A stretch of DNA of 64,000 nucleotides from Mobula hypostoma. Lineage: Eukaryota. A program made the translations under genes and the position numbers. The DNA lies in contig NC_086097.1 in NCBI RefSeq assembly GCF_963921235.1, positions 76,200,001 to 76,264,000 of the forward strand, written 5' to 3'. Each line of letters opens with the position of its first letter. The stretch's first letter is position 1. Shown piece by piece: positions 4,803 through 52,621 of this stretch. Under the pieces are notes generated by a model. It did no database searches. It saw only the letters and a list, made by a program, of their open reading frames with translations, and had not been told where the DNA came from.

Positions 4803-4983
4803 ACAAAGAAAACCTGCTGACTTTGACAGTTATGTATGGGGGAAGAACAGACAATTGAAATACAGTGGATGGACAACCTCTGATATCTATACAAAGAAAA
4901 CCTGCTGACTTTGACAGTTATGTATGGAGGAAGAACAGACAATTCAAATACAGTGGGTGGACAATCTCTGATAGCTATACAAA
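4803..4983. repeat. Tandem duplication, 88-bp unit x2
   Basis: ACAAAGAAAACCTGCTGACTTTGACAG...CTAT at 4803-4890 and 4891-4978 with about 5 substitutions, followed by ACAAA. Confidence 0.9.
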
Positions 4984-33192: not shown

Positions 33193-36100
33193 TGAATGTT
33201 TAAAGTATGATTTTCTTGAGTACAAAATACGAATCACGGTGAAGGATTAGTAAGCCTTTTATGTTCACTCATCACAAAGAATCACAAGTAGTTCAGCACT
33301 CAGTAGCTGCCATCTCAGTTGCCACCCAGACTTAGACCTTGCTGACCCTTTGGTCTGATTGTGTTGGGGCACTTGCAGCCGTACGTTCACTGTGGGATGG
33401 TGGTGTCCCTATGCCTCTGGCTTGGCTCTGTTTTCTCCTGATGGCTTTGTGAAAACTCACTTCTTTTAAATGTCCCTGATGATTATCAACATTTAAGAGC
33501 AGTCAAATGGATTTAAACGACTTATAAAAATAAGAACATTACTGAAAAATAAAATTACTTAAAAACACTTTAAAGAGCTGAAACTTAATTAAAAACATAA
33601 AGGACAACTGCTTACTCAAAACTCCCTTTTCGATCAAGCTTGATGATCCCATTCAAACAGATGGGTCCTGTCAAATTCTAGGCACTTGTGTTCTGCCCAT
33701 GGATAGTGCTGAGATCACGAACTGAGCAGATCAGATGTGTCAACATCTGACCTTCGGCTCACTCCTGACATCCAGGTTATAAAGTACAATCATGACAGTC
33801 AGGAGCAAGCTGACCCATGCAAGGCAAGCAAATCATCATGTGGACCTGCTGCTGTTGGCATGTGATTGATGACAGTACCCCATGTAAGGCTGCACACTTT
33901 CTCCTCTGTACTTTACCAACACTCCTTGTGTTGACATCTTTTACATTTCCCATCTGGTGTTCAGCATAGGGTTGGTCTGAGCTGTACATTTAACACACAT
34001 GGCCAAAACATTCCTATCTTCTCTCTTTTGCCAAAAGGACAATAGTTTTAAAGTTTATCCTCTGGCGGTGCCTCTGGTTCCTCTTATCCAGAAAAATGTG
34101 GTCCTGAGGATCTTCTGGAAGTCTCTAACTGCGCTGATATCTTACAGCACTCAAAGCCATACAGCACAATGAAGACATTGAATTTGAAGGTCATTCAGAT
34201 TTGCTTTTGTTTTAGTTTACTTTGATAATTATTAACTCATCAGGATGTAAAGGACAAGTCAGTCTCGCTCATAACTTTGTAGACTTCTCTATGATACTGT
34301 TGGTTACTATTTTCTTCCTGGGTAGTTGGAATCACTAGATTTTTCCTTGTGTTCTCATTGATAGAGAGCTTGTGATGGGTTAAAGTTTAAAACATGGTAA
34401 TGGTGGTAAATTTATACCACTTTTACAATTAATATTTAATCCACTTGTGATAGGAAAGGTATCACTTAACTTTGTAGCATCTATCTGAATAAAGATTTAT
34501 TTTAAAAACATCATTGCATTCTTTCATATTACCCAAATTGTTTTGATGAACTGCAAGAATTTATGTTATTATTGACAGCTAAGAGATAAAGTGAAAAACA
34601 TACTCTGTTGCTGTTTATTTCTCATATTATTCATTGATTTCTGTTTTAAAACATAAAGATCGAAGCGCTCAAACAAACTTTTCTGGAAAAGCTGGCTGTT
34701 GATTGTTAAAACCAGTTAAGGGCTTTTTAATGAGTCGTCACTAGAAGGTTGTGGTATGTTTTCAGCTGGTTGGGATGAATGAGACCAGGGCACACTATGC
34801 TTACCCTCTGAGCTGCCACCGGTTCAAGGAGCATCAGTAATGATAAAATGAACATTCTGGGAAAGAGGTGCATCAAGTTAAAAAGCATGACGACAGGAAC
34901 ATGCTGCATAAACAAACAATGTGCAGTCTTTGTACTTATTTAGGTTCAGATATATTGGCACCTTCACCAGAGGCATTTTGTTTTAAAAATGAATGCAATT
35001 AAAACAATTACCTCTGCCTTTATGACATATGATATGGTCTCTACTGTGAAGGGGATAAGAGAAAAACCCTTTTAAACTTCTGCTAACGATTTTGTGAGAA
35101 ATTATTAATAAAGAACCTAAAAAAAACAATTTTCTGTAAAATTGGTTGTGTTCTGGAGATAAAACACAAGAAAAAGAGATTAACTTACTTCATGGTTAAA
35201 CCACTGCATGTTTGACTAACCACATTTGACAAAATACTTTTAATGAAGAAAGTATGAAAAACATAAAATAGAACTATTTAGTTGAATTTACCCCCACTAT
35301 TAGCATAGTGCACATGATAGGGAACAACTTGGCAGGGGAACACAATGTGCATGACAGGAAAGTTTATAGGATTGGGAGTGACTGCAAACCATCATGTTAA
35401 CACATTCCCAGCAAACAATTTCATTTGTATGGGGCCACAAGCAATGCTCCCTTGCTATAAAATTAATGGCCCGGAATTTGCGGTGAGAATAATAGCGAGG
35501 CTTTCAGTCGTCACTGTTATAAATAGAGGAAATCTGACAGCGACTTCTGAAGTGCACACATGTTTAGTTAAATGTAGAAATCCAGAGGCTGTTCAGAAAG
35601 TGAGCTGTTTTGAAGCCTTCTCAAGTGGAAGCGAATGACTGAGTGCACTAATAGGAGCAATTAAGGAATATTCTATATATAAACAATAAGTTCCCTAGAA
35701 ATGTCACCTGTTTGAGATGTAAGATTTTGTAATAGTTCACTATTCCAAAGTTATTGCTCTCTGATTCTAAATCCAGTTTTAAATATGGAGACTAACATTC
35801 TCATATCTACATAGTTTAAAATTCCACATTTGTTCAAAATTAAAAAAAAATCTTCTGATATTTCAACTTCACATATATATGTTTCAGTCTTTATTCTCCA
35901 CCCTGTACAATTCTTAAAACATTAAATAAATTGTGCTTTTTACTTTCCGGTTTGCAGAATGTGGGAATTCCTCAATGTGACGAGAGAGGATTAGGCTGTT
36001 TATGACATCACTGTGTTGCATGCTAGGATTCGCCAAAGATGACCCCTGATATCAACTGATGTCAGAAAAGGTGAAATAGAGGTCACAGAGAATAAAATGT

Positions 36101-38959
36101 GGACAGGTTGCTTTGAGATCATTAGCAAATGCTTTAATTTCACTGTTGACCATGAAACCTGGGCCACTTGTTACTACATTCAGAATGTTGTAATCTCAGT
36201 TGTTGCAGGGTCTGTTCATGTAAAGAACCATTAAGCAGTTTAAGAGAGACAACTGTCCCTTTGGGTACTTATTTAAGGTAGTGAAAATTGCAATTTACAT
36301 TATTCTTTCGCTCCCCAAAGTAAAATGATCTGCAAAAATGTGTTTCTGTAGCATAAATTACATTGAAAGAGCATTCTGACCTCAATAATGGTTGCAATTT
36401 TTTACTTCTTATAATAAAGGCATTCACGTTTGTAATAAGCAGTAAGTTATAGTTTGTGTTTGTAATTGAATCAGAGCCCTCTATCCTATTTTAAGAGTGT
36501 GTGCAAAGAGATCAAAAGATGGATAAAGTTGAGGAAGATCATTCAGTCCATTTTACTCATTCATCTATAATAACATTGCAGTTCAGCATACGTCGCATTT
36601 GTTAGTGCTTAAATCTCATTTCATCACACTAAATATAAATCTAATCATTGATTAGTCATACTTGGCATGAATAATTTCTGGACATAGCCTTTTATTTGGC
36701 TTTTATTATCAAGAACTTTTGTCTCTTTAAATCAAAGGATTGGATTGCCCTGGATCTGAACTCACCACTCATATCCCTTCCCTCTGTTAAATGGCTAAAA
36801 GTGGACCAGCCTTACCCGATGGTTGTCTCATGAGATGGAGCACATCATGTGTAGTGGCTAAATCTCAGGAGGTGTCGTCTGATATCTTGCTTCGAAAACA
36901 CCTTCAGATTAAAGGCCTTTGAATTGTTTTTAGATGTCTCCCATTATCTCTCCCAGTTCCATTTAGATTCATAATAACCACCTCACATATCTGCTTTTCC
37001 AGGGCTGCCCAAATTACTACAATTCCTCTTTTGGCTCAATCTCATCATTCATTTTGTTTCTTGCATTCTTCCTTAATTTTGCCACACACTCATATCCCTC
37101 TCAGTCTCCCATTTATTATTCTTGCTTTCTTCATTTTGTCCCATATTATACTTTAGTTTATTTTGTCCCTGGTTGTATTACTAAGTTAGCTCTGAACAGA
37201 TTCGTACCAAGGTCGGTATTCTTCCTTCATTCAATGCCACTCATTCCTATATCCTATAATTCTGTTCACAATTTCCTTTCATCCCATTGGCTCCACATCA
37301 CGCTTTTATAACCCTAGTGTCTACCACACTCTGATTTGAGGCTTGAATTATCACCAAACTAGAAACTACAAGGGGTTAAAACACAATACGAACTGTAATT
37401 AAAAACAGTTAACTAAATTTTATTTATCAAAAGGCAATTAGTACAATGAGAGGTGGACTTGATTGTGACCTGTGATAAAGCCTTACTTTGATGAGATTAA
37501 AATTCATGTATTTATTTAAGAGATAAATTATTACCATTTGTTTAAAAGTTTGTGACAGCAAGACATTAAAGTTGTTCATAACTTGCCCTTTTCAAGACAT
37601 TATTAACTTTGCTTTCGTTAAAGTATTTCTTCTCTGGTGAATGCCTGGACTTGCCAAGGTCAGCAAGGGTGACCCAAAGAATCTACAGATTGTGCAATGT
37701 TTTCTGAATAAAACATCTCTAGGCCAAATACTGCATATGTAAAATGAAGACTGAATATCTGTTTACATTCTCCTAACCCAACTTCAGAACAGTTTCCAAT
37801 GCTGGTTGAGTGCAAAATTAGTATTTTCAAAAAAGGGTTTTTTAAAGTCCTTGCAAGAAACATCACCAACTGAGAACTAAATTGTGGTCCATTGTAAGCA
37901 TTTTCAGGATTTTATCATCATTAAGAACTTGTTCAAGCAAGTATAAATTTTTTGCACCATGAAGGATCACATTATTTAATCCAGTACTCTGGGCCAATTT
38001 CAAACTTTGTTGCTATTCATTAAGGGTCAGTAGTCTGACTTGTTATATTTCTTTTACCTTCTTTGGATAGACTGAAGAAAGGAAAATAAGACAATCTTTT
38101 ATTTTCATTGGGAAGATCCCATTTGTGTTCATGATCTTTAAAAGGTTTTGCAATTATTTGTATATCATCATTGAATGAAATTATTGGTCAATGAGTTTTA
38201 TGGAATGTTAGCAACATGGCCAATATCCTGATAGTTTTGAAATAAGAATGATGCAAATACTACGCAATGCTCTGATTAAGTTGTCAGAAACAACTAGTAA
38301 AACTATTTTAAATGGAAAGGGTCAGAAATTCATTGAGGGGAAATGTGAAATCTGACTATAATAGCTGTAAAATGCATCTCTTCAAAAGAAGACTGATATC
38401 ATCATTCATCACTTGAGATGGCGAGGCTCATGAACCCATGCAAATTCAGTGTGACTAATGAGAGAAGTAAAACATTTAGAATTTGTGCTAATGACCTTTG
38501 AAGCTAATACATACATTATCTTCCAAGAGAAACATGTTAGCCATTTACATTGAGATTACACAAACATTAACATTTCTCTTTCATAATAAACTGCTTATTT
38601 TACACTAGGTATTTGTTTTATTACACAGTAGTTTTGAGCATATATTACTAGCTTTGATATATTAAAATGAGTGTTGCTTAAAGCATAGACACTGCTGAAT
38701 AAATAGAATAGTGAACACAAGCATGAATGTACAACAGGTTTAGGAAATGAATTACTAAATAAAATGGGCTATCTGATACGGATTTCTAAAAAGCAACAGC
38801 AGAGATTTTAATTTTAAAAATAACATTTATTCCCAGAGTATGCTACTTTAAATGTATTGTTCCTTAAATCTGGTCATGAATTCAAGGTAGTAAAAGAGTA
38901 CGATGAAAGATCATTAGCACCGTCTGATCTGCCAGACATGTCCTCCTGTTCTGCACTGC

Positions 38960-39250
38960 ATGACTTTAACATTTTTGTGTGTTCTCAATCGCAACCTGCC
39001 CTCATTTCAATACTTTTATGTCTGTTTATTCAGATTTTCTCTAACTGGCCCTGCTAACTCATTGACAGCATGAACTCATTTACTGCTCATCATCAGAACT
39101 ATAACCGTAACCTCACCTTATCAGAGATATTTCCACTCACCCCATCTTGTGATGCTTTCTGTAATTTATAACTAGCTTCCTTTCTCTAATGAAGGATTCT
39201 TGACCTGAAATATTAACTGTTTCTCTTTTCACAGATGCTACCTAACCTGC
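38960..39250 (+). mobile_element. Very old Penelope-like 3' remnant
   Basis: CTAATGAAGGATTCTTGACCTGAAATATTAACTGTTTCTCTTTTCACAGATGCTACCTAACCTGC at 39185-39250 resembles the terminal repeat. The left boundary is a guess. Confidence 0.45.
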
Positions 39251-43145: not shown

Positions 43146-43595
43146 TAACTTAAACATTTTGGAGAATGATCTTCAAAACAGGCTGAAGATCCCAATCTCC
43201 ACATCCTGATAAATACCTGCAGGGTTTACTACTTATATTTGGGCTATGTTGGATGTGCCACTGGGTTAATTGCCTGGGACACAAAATCGCATGCTCTTGA
43301 TCATGCTGTAGACTGCAGCTTCAATACAATGTTAGCACAGGGGCAGTGGGTTGGAAAATATGCCCTAATAAGTCTCTGTCTCTTTGTCAATGAATGCCTT
43401 TCCCTATTTGTGAGTCGGTTCTTCTTTGTGTAAATAAATCCACAGTTCCTGTTTTCTCTGAGCTATTCTGGAGAACGAATACAAACTAACAACATCTGAG
43501 TGTTGGTAAAAATCTAACACAATAAGATTTAAAGGCACATGTATCTAAAGTACTTACATGAGATAAACAGAAAAAAATTAACAGTAACAATATTA

Positions 43596-45670
43596 ACAGC
43601 TACATCAGCAAGTGCATCGATGAGGTCACTGTGGCCAAGACCATCACTACACGCGCTAACCAGAGGCCATGGATGACCGCGGAGGTGTGTGCGCTGCTGA
43701 GGACCTGTGACACCGCCTTCAGAGCGGGCGACAAGGCAGCCCTAACAACAGCGAGGGCCAATCTGTCCTGGGCCATCAGAGAGGCAAAGCGTGCACACGC
43801 CCAATGAATCCACGGCAACTTCCAGGACAGTGGTGACACGCGGCGCATGTGGAAGGGCATTCAGGACATCCAGGACATCACCAACTACAAGACAACACCA
43901 CCTGCCTGTGCCGGTGATGCCTCCCTCCCAGTTGCGTTGAACAACTTTTACGCTCGTTTTGAGGTGGAAAATGATGTGGCGGCGAGGAAGACCACCCCTC
44001 CTCCGAATGACCAGGTGCTGTGTCTTACCGTGGTTGAAGTGAGGAGAACCCTATGCAGGGTCAACCCACGGAAGGCTGCTGGACCAGGCAATATTCCTGG
44101 CAGAGTGCTTAGAGGATGCGCAGACCAGCTAGCAGAGATTCTCACTGACATCCTCAACATCTCCCTGTGCAGCGCCATCATTCCTACGTGCTTCAAGGCG
44201 GCCACCATCATCCCCATGCCGAGGAAGTCTTCAGTGTTCTGCCTCAACAACCACCGTCCCGTTGCACTCACATCCATCATGAAGTGTTTGGAGAGGCTCA
44301 TCATGAGGCACATCAAGACCTTGCTGCCCCCCTCACTGGATCCCCTGCAGTTCGCGTACCGTCCCAACCATTCAACAGATGACGCCATTGTCATCACCCT
44401 CCACCTGGCCCTAACCCACCCAGACAAAGAAGACACGAACGTTCGAATGCTGTTCATAGACTTCAGTTCAGCACTCAACACAATCATTACTCAGAAACTG
44501 ATTGGAAAGCTGAGCCTACTGGGCCTAAACACCTCCCTCTGCAACTGGATCCTAGACTTCCTGACTGGGAGATCTCAGTCAGTCCTGATTGGAAGCAGCA
44601 TCTCCAACGCCATCACACTGAGCACGAGGGCACCCCAGGGCTGTGTGCTCAGTCCACTGCTGTGCACTCTGCTGACCCATGACTGTGTTGCAACACACAG
44701 CTCGAACCACATCATCAAGTTCACCAATGACACGACCGTGGTGGGTCTCATCAGCAAGAATGACCAGTCAGCATACAGAGAGGAGGTGCAGCAGCTAACA
44801 AACTGGTGCAGAGCCAACATCCTGTCTCTGACTGTGAACAAAACAAAGAGATGATTGTTGACTTCAGGAGGACACGGAGAGACCACTCTCCGCTGAACAT
44901 CAACGACTCCTTCATAGAGATTGTTAACAGCACCAAATTTCTTGGTGCTCACCCGGCGGAGAATCTCACCTGGTCCTTCAGCACCATTTCCATAGCAAAG
45001 AAAGCCCAGCAGCGTCTGTACTTTCTGCGAAGGCTGAGAAAAGTCCATCTCCCACCCTCCATCCTCACCACATTCTACAGAGGTTGTACTGAGAGCATCC
45101 TGAGCAGCTGCATCACTGCCTGGTTCGGAAATTGCACCATCTCGGATCACAAGACCCTGCAGTGGATAGTGAGGTCAGCTGAGGAGATCATTGGGATCTC
45201 TCTTCCTGCCATTACAGACATTTACACCACCTGCTGCATCCGTAAAACGAACAGCATTATGAAGGATCCTACGCACCCCTCATACAAACTCTTCTCCCTC
45301 CTGCCATCTGGCAAAGGGCACCGAAGCTTTCGGGCTCTCACGACCAGACTATGTAACAGTTTCTTCCCCCAGGCCATCGGACTCCTCAATACCCAGAGCC
45401 TGGACTGACACCAACCTACTGCCCTCTACTGTGCCTATTGTCTTGTTTATTATTTATTGTAATGCCTGCACTGCCTTGTGCACTTATGCAGTCCTGGGTA
45501 GTCTGTAGTCTAGTGTAGTTTTTGTGTTGTTTTACGTAGATCAGTATAGTTTTTGTATTGTTTCATGTAGCACCATGGTCCTGAAAAATGTTATCTCATT
45601 TTTACTGTGTACTGTATCAGCAGTTATGGTCGAAATGACAATAAAAAGTGACTTGACTTGACTTGACTTG
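43596..45670 (+). mobile_element. Rex1/Babar LINE, 5'-truncated, reverse transcriptase disrupted
   Basis: ORFs 43847-44854 and 44806-45408: [63 protein letters not shown] (decayed FADD), [31 protein letters not shown] then (GACTT)n tail to 45670. Confidence 0.95.
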
Positions 45671-46949
45671 ATCATGTACCTGAGCTCAATGTCATTTAAT
45701 ATTGGATCAGAAACTTAATAGTCCTTCTTTGCTGACATTATAACACCTTATAATTTCAATTTTAAGTTAATTTTCTTAGGCCGAGTTGCATCTGGATATT
45801 GTGCACTGGTGTAAAATGCTTAGATGTGAATTGACAGTGTGATTTACAATTTATCACCCATTTTATATTATTGCACCAAGTCAACCCTATTGATTGGATA
45901 CCACACTGGAGGATAAATGTAGCAATGTGCATGGCTGAAAAATATTAGACAAATAATGCTTCATAATATTGGTCAATATCAATAGAGTTGGAACCGGAAG
46001 AGAACCACAAGACTAGAAAGCCTAGAATTATATCAATTAACTTGATTCGGATCTATTTCTAGTAAACTGGGTGGTAAATCAACGGTTTCACACTTAGGAA
46101 AACAGTGTCACTAAGGGTCATGACTTTACAAGACATTCTAGATGTGGATGTTTTTTCTGCTGTTCCATTTTACAACATTTCAAGGAACTCCCAATTTTGG
46201 TTATATATCTTAATGGATTCCTTCTGTTTTTGATTAAAATCCAACTTTAACCCTAAAGTAGCAGTTGAACATAAGATTCTTATTATCATTACAGCACAGT
46301 ATCATGAAGAAAACTTAATTTCTTATTTCATCCAGCACAGAAGGCAGTGATACATTAGTAAGTCTATGAATAATTATCAGCAATGATGTGATTTTGAACC
46401 CACTGAGTTAACTTTGTGGCATTGTGTTATATTACCTAAATGTTCTTCATTTTCATTACTTTCCCCAAGAGTATCGGTAGAATCAGATATTAAACATTTG
46501 ATATTCACCTGGCTTTTCTTGAATAGTATTTAAGTAGTACTATTAATAGTATTAATAGTAATTATGACATAAAAGTTAGTCAAATAATTTTAGTAGAATA
46601 ATATGTTTACATTGTCACCTAAACTGAGTTAATTCAAGAAAACTGCCAGGCAGCTGTACTAAGTTGTTTGAGAAGTATCATATATGTTATTTTTCTTTGT
46701 AATACATAGTAATCTTAGAGCAAAGATGTTGGCTAAAATATTTCACGACTGTAAGCGTAGACAACTTTCTGAATACAAGTTTCTAAATAGATTGGACTCT
46801 GATGCAATGGTTTAACTTTGGGAAAAGGCAGAAGATATAAAAAATCTTTCTTTCTTTCCTCCATAGTTGCTTAAAAATCTCAGTATATAAAAATCACAAC
46901 TTAGTGATTTCACCATTTACTTTGATAGATAATTGAGATACTGAATCAG

Positions 46950-47500
46950 AGCATATAACCCAGGACCGCAAAATAAGCACAGGACTGAGAAATGCCAATC
47001 TTTAAGTTGTAATGTAGCTCTCACATAAAAACTTCCTTCATGAAACCTTACCTAAAAGCAAATATGGGATAAGGTTATTCTTTCTCAAACCAATAAAATC
47101 AGGAGACTGTTGCGAGAAGCAGTGTCACGCAGTTTGATGTCCCCAGCAGGGTACTTGGGGTCATATGTGGTGCCGTAAATTCAGTGTGGGGCTCTGACAT
47201 TGTGCTAAGTGTGGCCTAGGTCTGGGGGGTTTTTCTTTGATGCAAGTGAAGTTTAATAACTGGAAAAGCATTTGCTTTTATTTGCCTGTACTTTCTGCAA
47301 CAATAATATCAGCTCATTTAGGCTGTTTCAACATAAAAATGCACTAGTGAAGCAATCTGTTACAAATTAGCACTGCTCTCATTCCACTTTATTAGCAGGT
47401 AATTGAAAAGAGTTGGGAAAGTGTAATTTATCAGATTATGTGTGTTTATCTTCCTTGTGGGTAAAGCAGATTTTGGCAACTTCTTCAACCTACCCTGAGG
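46950..47500. promoter_or_regulatory. Candidate conserved enhancer in FMN1 intron (possible Gremlin1 fin/limb enhancer)
   Basis: Unique, transposon-free sequence beside the FMN1 exon. Motifs: CCAATAAAA 47090-47098, CATAAAAA 47024 and 47332, GCCGTAAA 47172 (posterior HOX-like), TGGGGGGT 47223 (GLI-like), CTTTGAT 47235 (TCF/LEF). Function is inferred from position only. Confidence 0.45.
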
Positions 47501-47644
47501 GAATCAAACTTCTTTAAGACAAGCTCACAAAAAAAACCCCAAGGAAAATATAGTTTGATGGTACAGTAAAAATGTTCAAATTAAAGAAGAATACTTTCCA
47601 AAATAATTAAAAGTTTTCCGTGGAAGATTTTATCTCCTTCTTAC

Positions 47645-47794
47645 CTTTCTTTTGAGATATTTTTGCTCTCGCGTTTCCAAGTATTCTTAAAATCCGTACA
47701 GAACTCAAACCACAACATGAATATGTAGTTTGGAGTAATCTCTTTCTCCCCAGATTTTGGCTTCACCCCAAAGAACCTTACTGTATTTTCGAAG
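47645..47794 (-). CDS. FMN1: Formin-1 internal coding exon (C-terminal FH2 region), 150 bp, phase 2 at both ends
   Basis: Minus strand has polypyrimidine tract ttttcctcttAG, the exon, then GTaaga. Translation (S)[49 protein letters not shown](R) closely matches the vertebrate FMN1 segment as I recall it ([51 protein letters not shown]) and fits FMN2 less well. Length 1+49x3+2=150. Confidence 0.95.
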
Positions 47795-49529
47795 CTAAGA
47801 GGAAAAGAAAAAAAAACTGTCAACACGCAAACCTGCTGGTGGCTGTAGTTTCCCTGAGGGCTTGTTCCAAAGTCAGTAGCCAAGATTCTGTAATTATTGT
47901 GACTTCCCTGTGCTTCAACATTCATGGCAGTAACACTTGTCATGTATAATGTAACCTTCAAACACCTACAGTCTTCCCAAAAGGGGATATTTATAACTGC
48001 CACATAACCATGTCCACATGCATGCATAAATATTGAAATACTGAATGCCTTTATAGAAAAATAATGGGGTATCAATATCGTCATTTAAAACTATACTGTA
48101 TCACCAATTCCAACCCCACAAATTAAAATAAAACTGGGTAAAGAATGAAATCAAGTTCACATTAGTCTACAAAAGTGAGGGGTTGCAGGCACATAACATA
48201 AATAAGTACAGACACATAAAATCTGAACTGCACACTTTATTTTCATTCATGCACTTCAAGTGGTTTGTATCTGTTTAAAATCATGTTCTTTCTGACAACT
48301 AAGGTGCCATTCAGTTGAAATGCAATGAAATCCAATATTGTGTTACTGATCTCAACAACATATCTACATAAAAGTCAGACATGGATTTAATGTAATGACA
48401 TGAAATAATGCATCAAATTGTTTTCCTGCTCTGTTATTATTTAGAATTTTGGTAACTACAAGCCCATGTTCCACACACACAGTCACAGGTACAATTGGCC
48501 CAGAATAGCTATTTTGTATATTTCTGTTTTAATTATGCTTTGAGTTTATGTATTTCTGTTCTTATTTATATTTTTCAGGTTTTCCATGGCTATTTGATGC
48601 CACAGACATTCTTTTAAAACTATTATTCCTTCATTCTTATCAATGCAGCAAGCATTCTCTAAAGAAATGAAAATAACTTTTCTCACACCGTTTTAACTAA
48701 TGCACATAGTGATGGACCTTCCTGGCTTTTTTGTCTTTGAGAAATATTTAAATTCTGAAGTTAATATTTAACAAGAGAGGAGTGTAACTTCTAGAACCCT
48801 GCAGATTATTCACCTTTCTTCCATCATCAAAGTTTAGGATCAAGAGGATAGGATAAACATTTTAAGCAGCTTAATTTTCACTAGCTGTGATGAGCCTTGG
48901 TCCCTTGAGCACACATTAGTCTTTAACTGAACAATGGTTATTTTACTGCCCCTCAAGAGAATAGCACATCAAACATTTACACATAGATCTACATCATTTT
49001 AATGGAAACCATCAGGATTGGTTTATACAGCAGTAAAATTACAAAAAAAATTATTGAAATGAACCTTTAATTTGCAGTAAAAAGTGTTTCAAAGAGTTCC
49101 CCATAGTAAAAATGTCCATATAAACACTAGGGTGCATTAATTAGATCATTAATTAGTCACTTCTGTTGTCAACTTAAAATTCTTTACATAACCATTGTGA
49201 TCATGTTAATAATTTAAATAAAATTACATGAAAGAACACCTTGTTTTATCACCAATCACTTTTAACAATGGAAAGTCTCCAGGTAACTGTGATGAGTAGA
49301 TCTCTATTTCAATCTTAATAAAGAAACATTTAAGAGGATGCTGAATGTTTCACACAATTATCTGTATTTGGATCTACTCAAGAGTTCATCCTTTAAGCAT
49401 AACTTCATATTATATTACAATACTCCTATTTAATTTATCAACAAAAATAATTAATGCCTTTAGAATTGAACGTTAAAGAATTACATCATATCTTGTGCAC
49501 AATCCTAGCTAGGTACCTTCATTCAAGCT

Positions 49530-49997
49530 TGTCATCCAAAACTCTTCTATCCACATTCTAAGACAGTCCCATTCCCCCTCCCTCTTGTTTTTTGATGCTT
49601 TACAGTAGCCCCTGGTTAAAGAAACCCTCAGTTTTCAAACTTGCATTCTGATTGGTTTTTAAATCCCTCTGTAGGCTCTCTCCTCCATACTTCTACAATC
49701 TCCTCCATACCTCTACAATCTCCTCCATTTTTTTAACAATCATGACATCATGACACCTTTGCCTTTTAAAGTTTGGCACCACCGCTTTCTTTCTGATTTT
49801 GAGGTCATAAGGTCCGGAAAGCACTCCTAAACTTCTTCAGTTCACTTGCTTCCTTTAAGATGCTTCTTAAAGCATAACCCATTTACCAAGCTCCAATATC
49901 TTACATAGGTATCTCACATTTGATGATATTTCTGTGAAGAGCTCTGATATGTTTTGCTGCAATGAAGCTGGTGTATAAATGGAAGTTAAATGTTGTT
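49530..49997 (+). mobile_element. Old L2-type LINE 3' remnant, containing a 20-bp tandem unit at 49679-49727
   Basis: TCCTTTAAGATGCTTCTTAAAGCATAACCCATTTACCAAGCT..CTGTGAAGAGCTCTGATATGTTTTGCTGCAATGAAG..TATAAATGGAAGTT..TGTTGT. Confidence 0.5.
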
Positions 49998-51304
49998 TAT
50001 TATAATATAAATGCTGTTAATTAAAACTTCCATTTGTCAGCATGTACACAATGATTTACAGTTCAAACCATGCCTTCAGAGGCATTGCATCCTAAGAGTC
50101 CTACCTCTAAAGTGTCCATGAGTATACAAATGATTGAAGATGCAAAAGGTCCATCCTGATACACTCCATATAATTCAACATTCAAAATTCCAGTCCAACT
50201 ACTTACCCTTGACCACATCTAAACTTACAGTTTATGCTCTCACCACCACTGCCACCATCAATGCTCATCCCCCACATCACAGGCCTCATTGAGGCTTTGG
50301 CCATGCTGAATACAATCTCCAAGGAGTACATGAAGAGCAATTTTTCTGGGCCAAAAATATGCAACATCTGGTCAGTCATATATGGGAAGTTGGGCACTGG
50401 GTAATTTGAGAGTTCAGCTGAATTTCAACTCAATTACAACATTTAGTTTAAGTAGAAATGATAAAGCTCATAATTTGGGCCTTTAGTAGGTCAAACTGTC
50501 AATACAAGGGAACAAAATAACTAACATCAGCTTCCAGGGTCTTGGCAAGATGATACTGTGAGATTGTCTCTGCTAGTCTCTTGGAATTGTACTCACACAT
50601 CAACACGGAAAACTCACCTTTGTCACAAACAAAAGTAGATAATCTGGTTGCCTAAACTTTTGCACCTAGTCTCAGAATTGACCAAATAATATTTGTTATT
50701 AGAGATATTGATCAAAGAGTTGATCAAGATGTAAGGTAATACAATTCTGCTAGCTCACAAGCCCACTCTACCAAACCACCAGCTCACATCTGCACACTGT
50801 CATTACCATCTCATATCTGTCTCTTACAACCTAGAAGAAACTATAATGATATTATTAACCATGAGTAATTTAAATGGGCAGCGGGAGATTGAGGATGAAA
50901 TGGGGTATCCAACAATGCATTAATGAAGCTTCTTTCCTAAGTCACTAGCAAATCACCTGTGATAGTGATCACAAACACTTAATGGTATAGAATTGCATAC
51001 TAAATGCAAAATTTTAATAAATTGTTATTTTTATTGTATGTGAAAGTCAATAATACTTTACTTTTTTGAAGAAGTCTCACCATGCAGTGAGGTTGCAAAT
51101 ACTGTGCAAATTCTAAACTTGTGAAAATTTAAGTGCAGATTTCCTGGCATAAAAGCTTGAGAAGTATCAGGAAGCATCTGCTCCACTGTTGAACCCCAGT
51201 GTTACAGTGCAATAAGTAAATAAACTGTTACAGCTGGGTCAGCATGTTTGAGACATCTGCATTTGTGTGGGAGTCCTGAACTTGCTGGAATGCAATGGAA
51301 CATA

Positions 51305-52621
51305 CAGTTTCATGCAAAAATCTTAGTCACCCTAGATTTTTTTAAATATAAATTTTGCTCTAGATGTTTATTTTTTGTCTTCTGCATTTGTATGTCAGTA
51401 CAAAAGAGCAAATTTTAGATATCCAAACATTCATTTTCCAGAAAAAAGTTGGAGAGAAATTTTTGTATTAAGTAATAAGAGCACTTTTCAAATAAAAACT
51501 TGATTACTTTGTAGATAGGTATATAGCCCAGTGTATGATTAAACAAAGATAACAAACAGGTACTAATGATCAATGGTATAATGAGTTGAATGAACTAAAC
51601 TGACTAACTGAAACAGAAAACGGTGTAGAAGGATAACCAAACTAAAAGGTGAGGGTGTGGCAGATGTGACCGTTGACCTTCATATCAATTTTTACGGCAT
51701 GACAAGAGTGAGCATAGAAACAAGTCACAAGCTGGGCATCCTGGATCAGGAAGGTCTCTCCCAAACAGAAATTTTGCGGCAGACAGGATTTTCAAGATGT
51801 ACTGTCTAAACTCTTCAGAAGAAGCACAAAGAAACAGGCAAGGTTGAGGACCAGAAATGCAGTGGTCAGTCACAGAAACAGAGTGCAGCAGACGAGAGAT
51901 ACATCAAACTGACTTCCCTAGGTGTCCACATACGTCCATCTACAGTCCACAGGAGTCTTGTCAGAAGTGGTCTTCATGGAAGAATTGCTGCCTAAAAGCC
52001 ATTCCTCTGAAGCGGAAACAAAGCCAAGAGACTCACTAATGCACAAAAACACAAGGACTGGGGTGCTGAACAATGGCAGCAAGTGCTCTGGACTGAGGAG
52101 GCAAAATTTGAAATTTTTGACTCAAACAGGAGGCAGTTTGTTCATAGAGGAATTGGGGTCCTCTACATGGATGCATGTCTGCAGCCAACAGTGAAGCACA
52201 GCAGAGGTTCCCTGCAGGTTCTGCAAATGGAGTTGGTGATCTGGTTAGAATTAATGGAATATGCAATGCTGAGAAGTACAAGCAGATTCTCCTCCATCAC
52301 GCAACACCATCAGGGAGGTGTCTAATTGGTCCCAACTTCACTCTGCAGTAAGACATTGACCCCAAACACATGGCTGAGGTCATAAAGAACTCCCAGCTGA
52401 TTTTCTTATAAAGCTTCATGATTGTGTACCTAAAGGAACTGATGCAGTTTTAAAGGCAAAGAGTGGTTGCACCAAATATTGATTTGATTTAGATTTCTAC
52501 TGTTTACTGATCTTTATAGTAGTTTTTTTGATACTTAGAAACTTTTCATTTCATTTTTTTGAAAGCATCTTCTCTTTACAGAATTTTTTTTACACGTGCC
52601 TAAGATTTTTGCACGATATTG
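51305..52621 (+). mobile_element. Tc1 transposon, decayed
   Basis: TA-flanked terminal inverted repeats CAGTTTCATGCAAAAATCTTAGTCAC / GTGCCTAAGATTTTTGCACGATATTG. Remnants VLWTEEAKFEIFDSNRRQFV..CLQPTVKHSRGSLQV and LQ*DIDPKH. Confidence 0.9.

Follow-up and report, generated by a model that had tools for sequence, protein, structure and literature searches.

The closest described counterpart of the locus analysed here is CRM2 of the Grem1 landscape, which is the same element as GRS1. Its conserved core, CE, corresponds to HMCO1 and is adjoined by Fmn1 exon 22 (PMC8455560, PMC3541112), and this exon is integral to CRM2 in all species (Malkmus 2021, PMC8455560). In mouse, CRM2 lies within the Grem1 TAD, is occupied by SMAD4, GLI3 and HOX13 complexes, and outranks every other single enhancer of Grem1 in the limb (PMC8455560). 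Reporter assays on DNA and BAC assays show it to be essential, with GLI3 enriched on it in mouse (PMC8455560, PMC3541112). Cartilaginous fish have the element as well. CRM2 of the bamboo shark is active in mouse limb buds in 5/5 cases and that of the elephant shark in 6/6, a 1214-bp shark construct suffices for strong activity, and mutation of Gli or Hox13 sites disrupts or reduces the bamboo shark activity; the pattern that shark CRM2 drives in mouse differs from the native posterior pattern (PMC8455560). CRM2 also persists in python, an animal without forelimbs, with reduced activity. Flanking elements are class-specific (ME in mammals, extra conserved blocks in birds), and ME is described in the same paper as absent from basal fishes (PMC8455560). 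Zebrafish is reported to keep the same exon without HMCO1 homology (PMC3541112). An earlier note on this DNA had placed the most conserved module, CRM2/GRS1, beside a late Fmn1 exon, which is correct according to both papers (PMC8455560, PMC3541112), and the chondrichthyan orthologue that it treated as a candidate has moved beyond that status, with shark versions already published and reporter-tested (PMC8455560).

We analysed a window of 64,000 nucleotides from the ray Mobula hypostoma, in which the orthologue of this element had been proposed to occupy a block of about 3.8 kb (45700–49500) around an FMN1 exon. For the comparison we used the HMCO1 core alignment of 10 species printed by Zuniga 2012 (PMC3541112). 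The coding exon and the core are located as follows.

47794→47645, minus strand: FMN1 coding exon of 150 nt that corresponds to mouse Fmn1 'exon 22'; it has a pyrimidine tract before an AG acceptor, and a GT donor.
47468→47301, minus strand: match to the HMCO1 conserved core, by-eye comparison with the printed 10-species alignment.
47349–47373, minus strand: run of 25 nt in which the ray equals both chicken and coelacanth, by eye.

On the FMN1 sense strand, the core starts 176 nt 3' of the splice donor of the exon. Its identity, counted by eye with hand-placed gaps, is 140/168 to chicken, 139/168 to coelacanth, 127/168 to human and 114/169 to mouse. Among the 73 columns that are invariant in the 10 printed species, 65 are kept in the ray, again by eye (15/15, 32/39 and 18/19 in the successive blocks). 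The 25-nt run occurs once in the window, is matched by 0 of 100 shuffles and has no match in the metagenome contigs scanned with it. The ray departs from the invariant columns at 8 of the 73 positions, 7 of them within 35 nt (47415–47381), the printed species being lobe-finned fish and tetrapods without sharks; the change at 47392 produces a better posterior-HOX-like site. HMCO3, near exon 19, has lower coordinates than HMCO1, near exon 22, so that HMCO1 is printed in the Fmn1 sense direction (PMC3541112), and the ray core has the same orientation relative to FMN1 as that of mouse. The earlier note had counted alignment of the exon alone to tetrapods as evidence against its reading; here the adjoining non-coding sequence aligns to tetrapods as well.

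The FMN1 exon expected at this block is borne out by its splice sites and by formin matches; its number follows from its adjacency to HMCO1, without exon counting. The 50-residue exon peptide matches 318 of 322 candidate proteins, and every named full-length top match is a formin or formin-1. It is identical at 49/50 residues (98%) to a Hemitrygon akajei formin, at 48/50 (96%) to that of Hypanus sabinus and at 40/50 (80%) to human FMN1, with 86–92% identity in sharks, skates and sawfish, and it matches no Pfam family. By these identities alone, the source would most likely be a myliobatiform ray. Of 11 relatives checked, 10 have 41–42 further residues C-terminal of the exon. A Pristis formin model (P0006) lacks about 32 residues shortly before the studied exon, as if an upstream exon had been skipped; an isoform or a gap in the annotation may explain this. 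We found no second FMN1 exon in the 64-kb window, either by tblastn with 7 proteins or by a sliding scan of 12 residues, so that the FMN1 introns extend for more than 47 kb downstream and more than 16 kb upstream. Similarly, the 64-kb window contains no GREM1-sized non-transposon ORF; all of its ORFs of at least 180 aa are of retrotransposons, and GREM1 therefore lies outside the window. Since the distance from GRS1 to Grem1 in mouse is only ~70 kb (PMC3541112), and the 3' intron of the ray exceeds 47 kb, the Grem1 landscape is probably longer in the ray.

The extent of the element was assessed by projection of published coordinates and by comparison, over 45700–51600, with contigs of 4 runs from four coded related organisms (X9–X12; shares 0.34–0.48). 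Part of the stretch is contained in 20 of the 24 runs listed.

About 47030–47580: estimated full CE/HMCO1, obtained by extending the aligned core according to the HMCO1 coordinates of mouse, human and chicken, no indels assumed.
47003–47829: constrained block of CE, a short intron stretch and the exon, from X9 and X10 contigs.
45681–46975: repeat-poor intron in which constraint is undetected (changed: 3.8% in X9, 4.5% in X10, 4.9% in X11).

Projection of the mouse coordinates alone places the element at 47058–47580. In X10, there are 3 changes in 627 nt (0.48%) over 47203–47829, a piece that contains the 150-nt exon, versus 208 in 4331 nt of flank (4.8%; Fisher P 2e-9), and in X9 0 changes in 234 nt (47003–47236) versus 102 in 2836 nt (3.6%; Fisher P 4e-4); both flank totals omit core-straddling pieces, 46707–47229 in X10 (20 changes) and 47211–49059 in X9 (26 changes). 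The distal edge rests mainly on X9, because the positions of the 20 changes in the former piece are mostly unlisted. Constraint on the core is resolved in two of the four runs (X9 and X10), those of X11 (4.4%) and X12 (4.6%) being long pieces that average over it. Among the best-supported 40 of 481 differences, none falls in 46976–47619, which is the longest gap among those 40. The left part (45681–46975) is as divergent as DNA beyond the 3.8-kb block (Fisher P 0.71 and 0.11), and the left flank carries deletions of up to 13 nt. On the right side, X9 changes at no more than 2.1% of positions in 47830–49059 versus 3.6% elsewhere (Fisher P 0.014), and X10 at 4.3% over 47854–50431. At 46018–46206, X12 is changed at no more than 2 of 189 nt, versus 4.6% in its long piece, an observation from one run and possibly due to chance.

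Deep conservation is restricted to CE and the exon, with purifying selection over ~47000–47830 as resolved in two of the four runs. At the level of sequence comparison, orthology, position, orientation and constraint at ~47000–47830 are demonstrated. Thus, the proposal that the block is the orthologue of the Grem1 enhancer holds for the homology of the core beside the exon but not for its size, which is ~0.5–0.8 kb and not 3.8 kb; outside it, the 3.8-kb block consists for the most part of ordinary intron.

For the motif content we take MRTAAAA as the HOX13-like core consensus, and likewise use consensus strings for GLI and TCF.

47024–47338: four HOX13-like cores (at 47024, 47092, 47276 and 47332) and a full consensus site at 47090, by consensus motif scan.
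About 47201–47308: putative equivalent of the mouse GLI3 ChIP amplicon 'd', no-indel projection.
48941–49223: second, loose HOX-like cluster, roughly at the position of mouse ME/GBR2 by a loose projection.

The interval 47020–47340, for which clustered HOX13-like, GLI-like and TCF motifs had been claimed, contains 4 HOX13-like cores against a mean of 0.44 (1/1000 shuffles; 0.44% of same-size windows reach 4), a shuffle test that is biased because the interval was picked from its motifs. In the independently mapped interval 47058–47580 there are 4 against 0.8 (6/1000 shuffles). By consensus scan, GLI-like sites number 1 against 0.92 expected in the first interval (607/1000 shuffles) and are equally unexceptional in the mapped one (752/1000). 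Strict TCF sites do not exceed the chance level (1 against 0.42; 351/1000 shuffles), and a looser TCF pattern gives a modest excess in 47058–47580 (4 against 0.8; 13/1000 shuffles). The claimed cluster is upheld for HOX13; in the consensus scan GLI does not rise above chance, and TCF is weak and pattern-dependent. GLI was scored here by consensus strings; Malkmus 2021 used a PWM at p<0.01 (PMC8455560), and mouse GBR1 binds GLI without a consensus motif (PMC3541112). The interval 47201–47308 takes in the best GLI-like match, at 47223 with 2 mismatches, together with a TCF site at 47235 and a HOX13-like core at 47276. The motif interval shares only 40 nt with the printed core and lies mostly in its distal extension, the distal half of the element. 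The second HOX-like cluster has 4 sites against 0.78 in 48800–49200 (4/1000 shuffles), an interval chosen after the fact, and divergence in its region is lower in one of the two runs with separate pieces.

The element sits in a zone that is bounded on both sides by repeats.

43560–45680, plus strand: LINE retrotransposon, left bound (RVT_1, E 3.9e-20; PF09004, E 2e-18).
51310–52620, plus strand: high-copy repeat, right bound (depth >1000 from bin 51216–51412; right end by eye).

The LINE is presumably Rex1-like, and the right-bounding repeat, whose ORF matches no Pfam family, we take to be Tc1-like from its appearance. Contig depth is flat and single-copy over 45700–51215 in all four runs, with one hole in X9 (uncovered at 50428–50821), and exceeds 1000 from bin 51216–51412, the comparison extending to 51600. 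The zone free of high-copy repeats spans 45681–51309 (5.6 kb), as judged from contig depth and the window's own repeats, by which old low-copy relics may be missed. This agrees with the earlier note in that 45700–49500 has no high-copy repeat. Contrary to what had been stated, the zone is not centred on the exon; it extends off-centre to about 51,300, and it is not the longest in the window, because a second empty stretch at 33202–39175 (6.0 kb) has no match to the window's own repeats. We therefore rejected 'transposon-free' as a sign of function, a weak one given a second stretch as long, and propose that the scarcity of transposons is due in part to protection of the core and in part to chance. 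The stretch 33202–39175 is intronic, with CRM2 on one side and the next FMN1 exon on the other; further conserved elements may lie in it.

Several minor features were also seen. A small depth bump at 49837–50033, near the right boundary of the proposed block, is present in all four runs (2-3 contigs at 49879) and is probably a low-copy repeat relic. A decayed LINE2 piece at 49480–49960, suggested by resemblance, was not confirmed by alignments on the expected strand (15 and 31/200 shuffles); one minus-strand comparison of 8 reached 0/200 shuffles, at a low score. An imperfect inverted repeat at 46491–46609 was rejected as a structured element, its folding being no better than that of shuffles (z −1.2, 20/200), short tblastx self-matches of the window were taken as noise, and Rfam gave 0 matches in the window. 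A recent-looking tandem duplication lies at 4803–4983 (period 88, 2.1 copies, 94% matches).

We consider it very probable that the ray element is the orthologue of CRM2/GRS1, a long-range Gremlin1 appendage enhancer, with a core of ~0.5 kb just 3' of FMN1 exon 22 that acts jointly with the exon. By analogy with the mouse and shark copies, it would be active as a limb or fin enhancer, most likely passing signals from SHH/GLI and posterior HOX on to GREM1 in the posterior mesenchyme of the fin. Posterior HOX factors and the GLI factors that act downstream of SHH, joined at onset by SMAD4, would bind the core in mesenchyme of the posterior fin bud, as extrapolated from mouse and shark work. Looping over the last exons of FMN1, the core could then reach the GREM1 promoter, expected to be over 47 kb past the window's left end, and GREM1 would block BMP and so sustain the FGF/SHH outgrowth loop. 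In skate, grem1 is expressed posteriorly in the pectoral fin and is SHH-responsive in the pelvic fin. HiChIP in skate lists the Grem1 promoter as looping to sites 30–60 kb and 160–270 kb away, on the opposite side from Arhgap11a (PMC10115646). These loops fall short of significance at the cut-off of that paper (FDR 0.19 and 0.81), and their posterior bias is non-significant (PMC10115646).

Other readings of the same sequence have to be weighed against a compact orthologue of CRM2. It is unlikely that the whole 3.8 kb is one extended enhancer in which chondrichthyan-specific modules flank CE. Such an arrangement would parallel the class-specific flanking elements of mammals and birds (PMC8455560), and could account for the lower X9 divergence in 47830–49059, the 2 changes in 189 nt of X12 at 46018–46206 and the second HOX-like cluster at 48941–49223. 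However, divergence of the left flank equals that of DNA outside the block in three runs, the flank has deletions of up to 13 nt, X10 reaches 4.3% over 47854–50431, and the 1214-bp shark construct is strongly active alone (PMC8455560). As to the conserved non-coding stretch itself, its start only 176 nt from the splice donor is what one would expect of an element that serves the FMN1 exon in splicing or at the RNA level, an interpretation that is nevertheless extremely improbable. The orthologue is essential in DNA-level reporter and BAC assays and enriched for GLI3 in mouse (PMC8455560, PMC3541112), Rfam has 0 matches in the window, the zebrafish exon is reported to persist without HMCO1 homology (PMC3541112), and orthologues are already reporter-active outside the FMN1 context.

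A true orthologue of CRM2 could also be kept in the ray mainly for another tissue or target (the clasper, non-fin Grem1 domains or FMN1 itself) and not for Grem1 in the pectoral fin. Grem1 is enriched in skate clasper buds (PMC4403318), and python CRM2 is retained, with reduced activity, in the absence of forelimbs (PMC8455560). We regard this as very improbable, since mouse CRM2 is the main single Grem1 limb enhancer within the Grem1 TAD, the two cartilaginous fish orthologues are limb-active (PMC8455560), and grem1 is posterior in the skate pectoral fin. Distinctly improbable, too, is a batoid CRM2 retuned for the wing-like fin, in which the 7 core changes (47415–47381) and the HOX-like cluster at 48941–49223 would make Grem1 expression last longer or reach further: cartilaginous fish as a whole may share the changes, and in skate grem1 remains posterior. 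No support was found for a role peculiar to the ray in its wing-like fin or in fin expansion. We thus retain the reading of a compact CRM2/GRS1 orthologue just 3' of the exon.

The element is already known, with two chondrichthyan orthologues in print, and the ray adds one more species. No paper testing a ray or skate copy of CRM2 was found by full-text search, which most subscription papers lie outside, and the main text of a mobulid genome preprint contains neither 'grem' nor 'fmn1'. A batoid thereby joins the species in which this well-studied enhancer of fins and limbs is described, with exact coordinates for a construct of ~1 kb.

Compared with CE/HMCO1 and Fmn1 exon 22 of the described Grem1 CRM2/GRS1, the ray locus has the same core sequence (67–83% by eye), the same exon adjacency and orientation and a similar HOX13-like content, and deep conservation is limited to CE and the exon in both. 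It differs at 8 of 73 invariant columns and in having its next FMN1 exon more than 47 kb away. The bamboo and elephant shark CRM2 sequences of Malkmus 2021 are orthologues of the same element, likened here by their published description; they come from a shark and a chimaera, whereas the ray is a batoid. Placing the ray and bamboo shark copies in the same mouse assay would be widely interesting only if they differed. HMCO2/CRM3 and HMCO3 belong to the same landscape and lie further 5' in FMN1. In the window, which covers only 16 kb 5' of the exon, a single HMCO2 motif gives 0 matches and a single HMCO3 motif one chance-level match, and CRM3 does not appear among the elements listed as conserved in cartilaginous fish (PMC8455560). 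Like the skate hoxa fin enhancer (Marlétaz 2023, PMC10115646), the ray element would be a batoid fin enhancer whose sequence is conserved among cartilaginous fish. In contrast, the hoxa enhancer is active anteriorly and implicated in the wing-like fin, while skate grem1 belongs to the posterior fin (PMC10115646).
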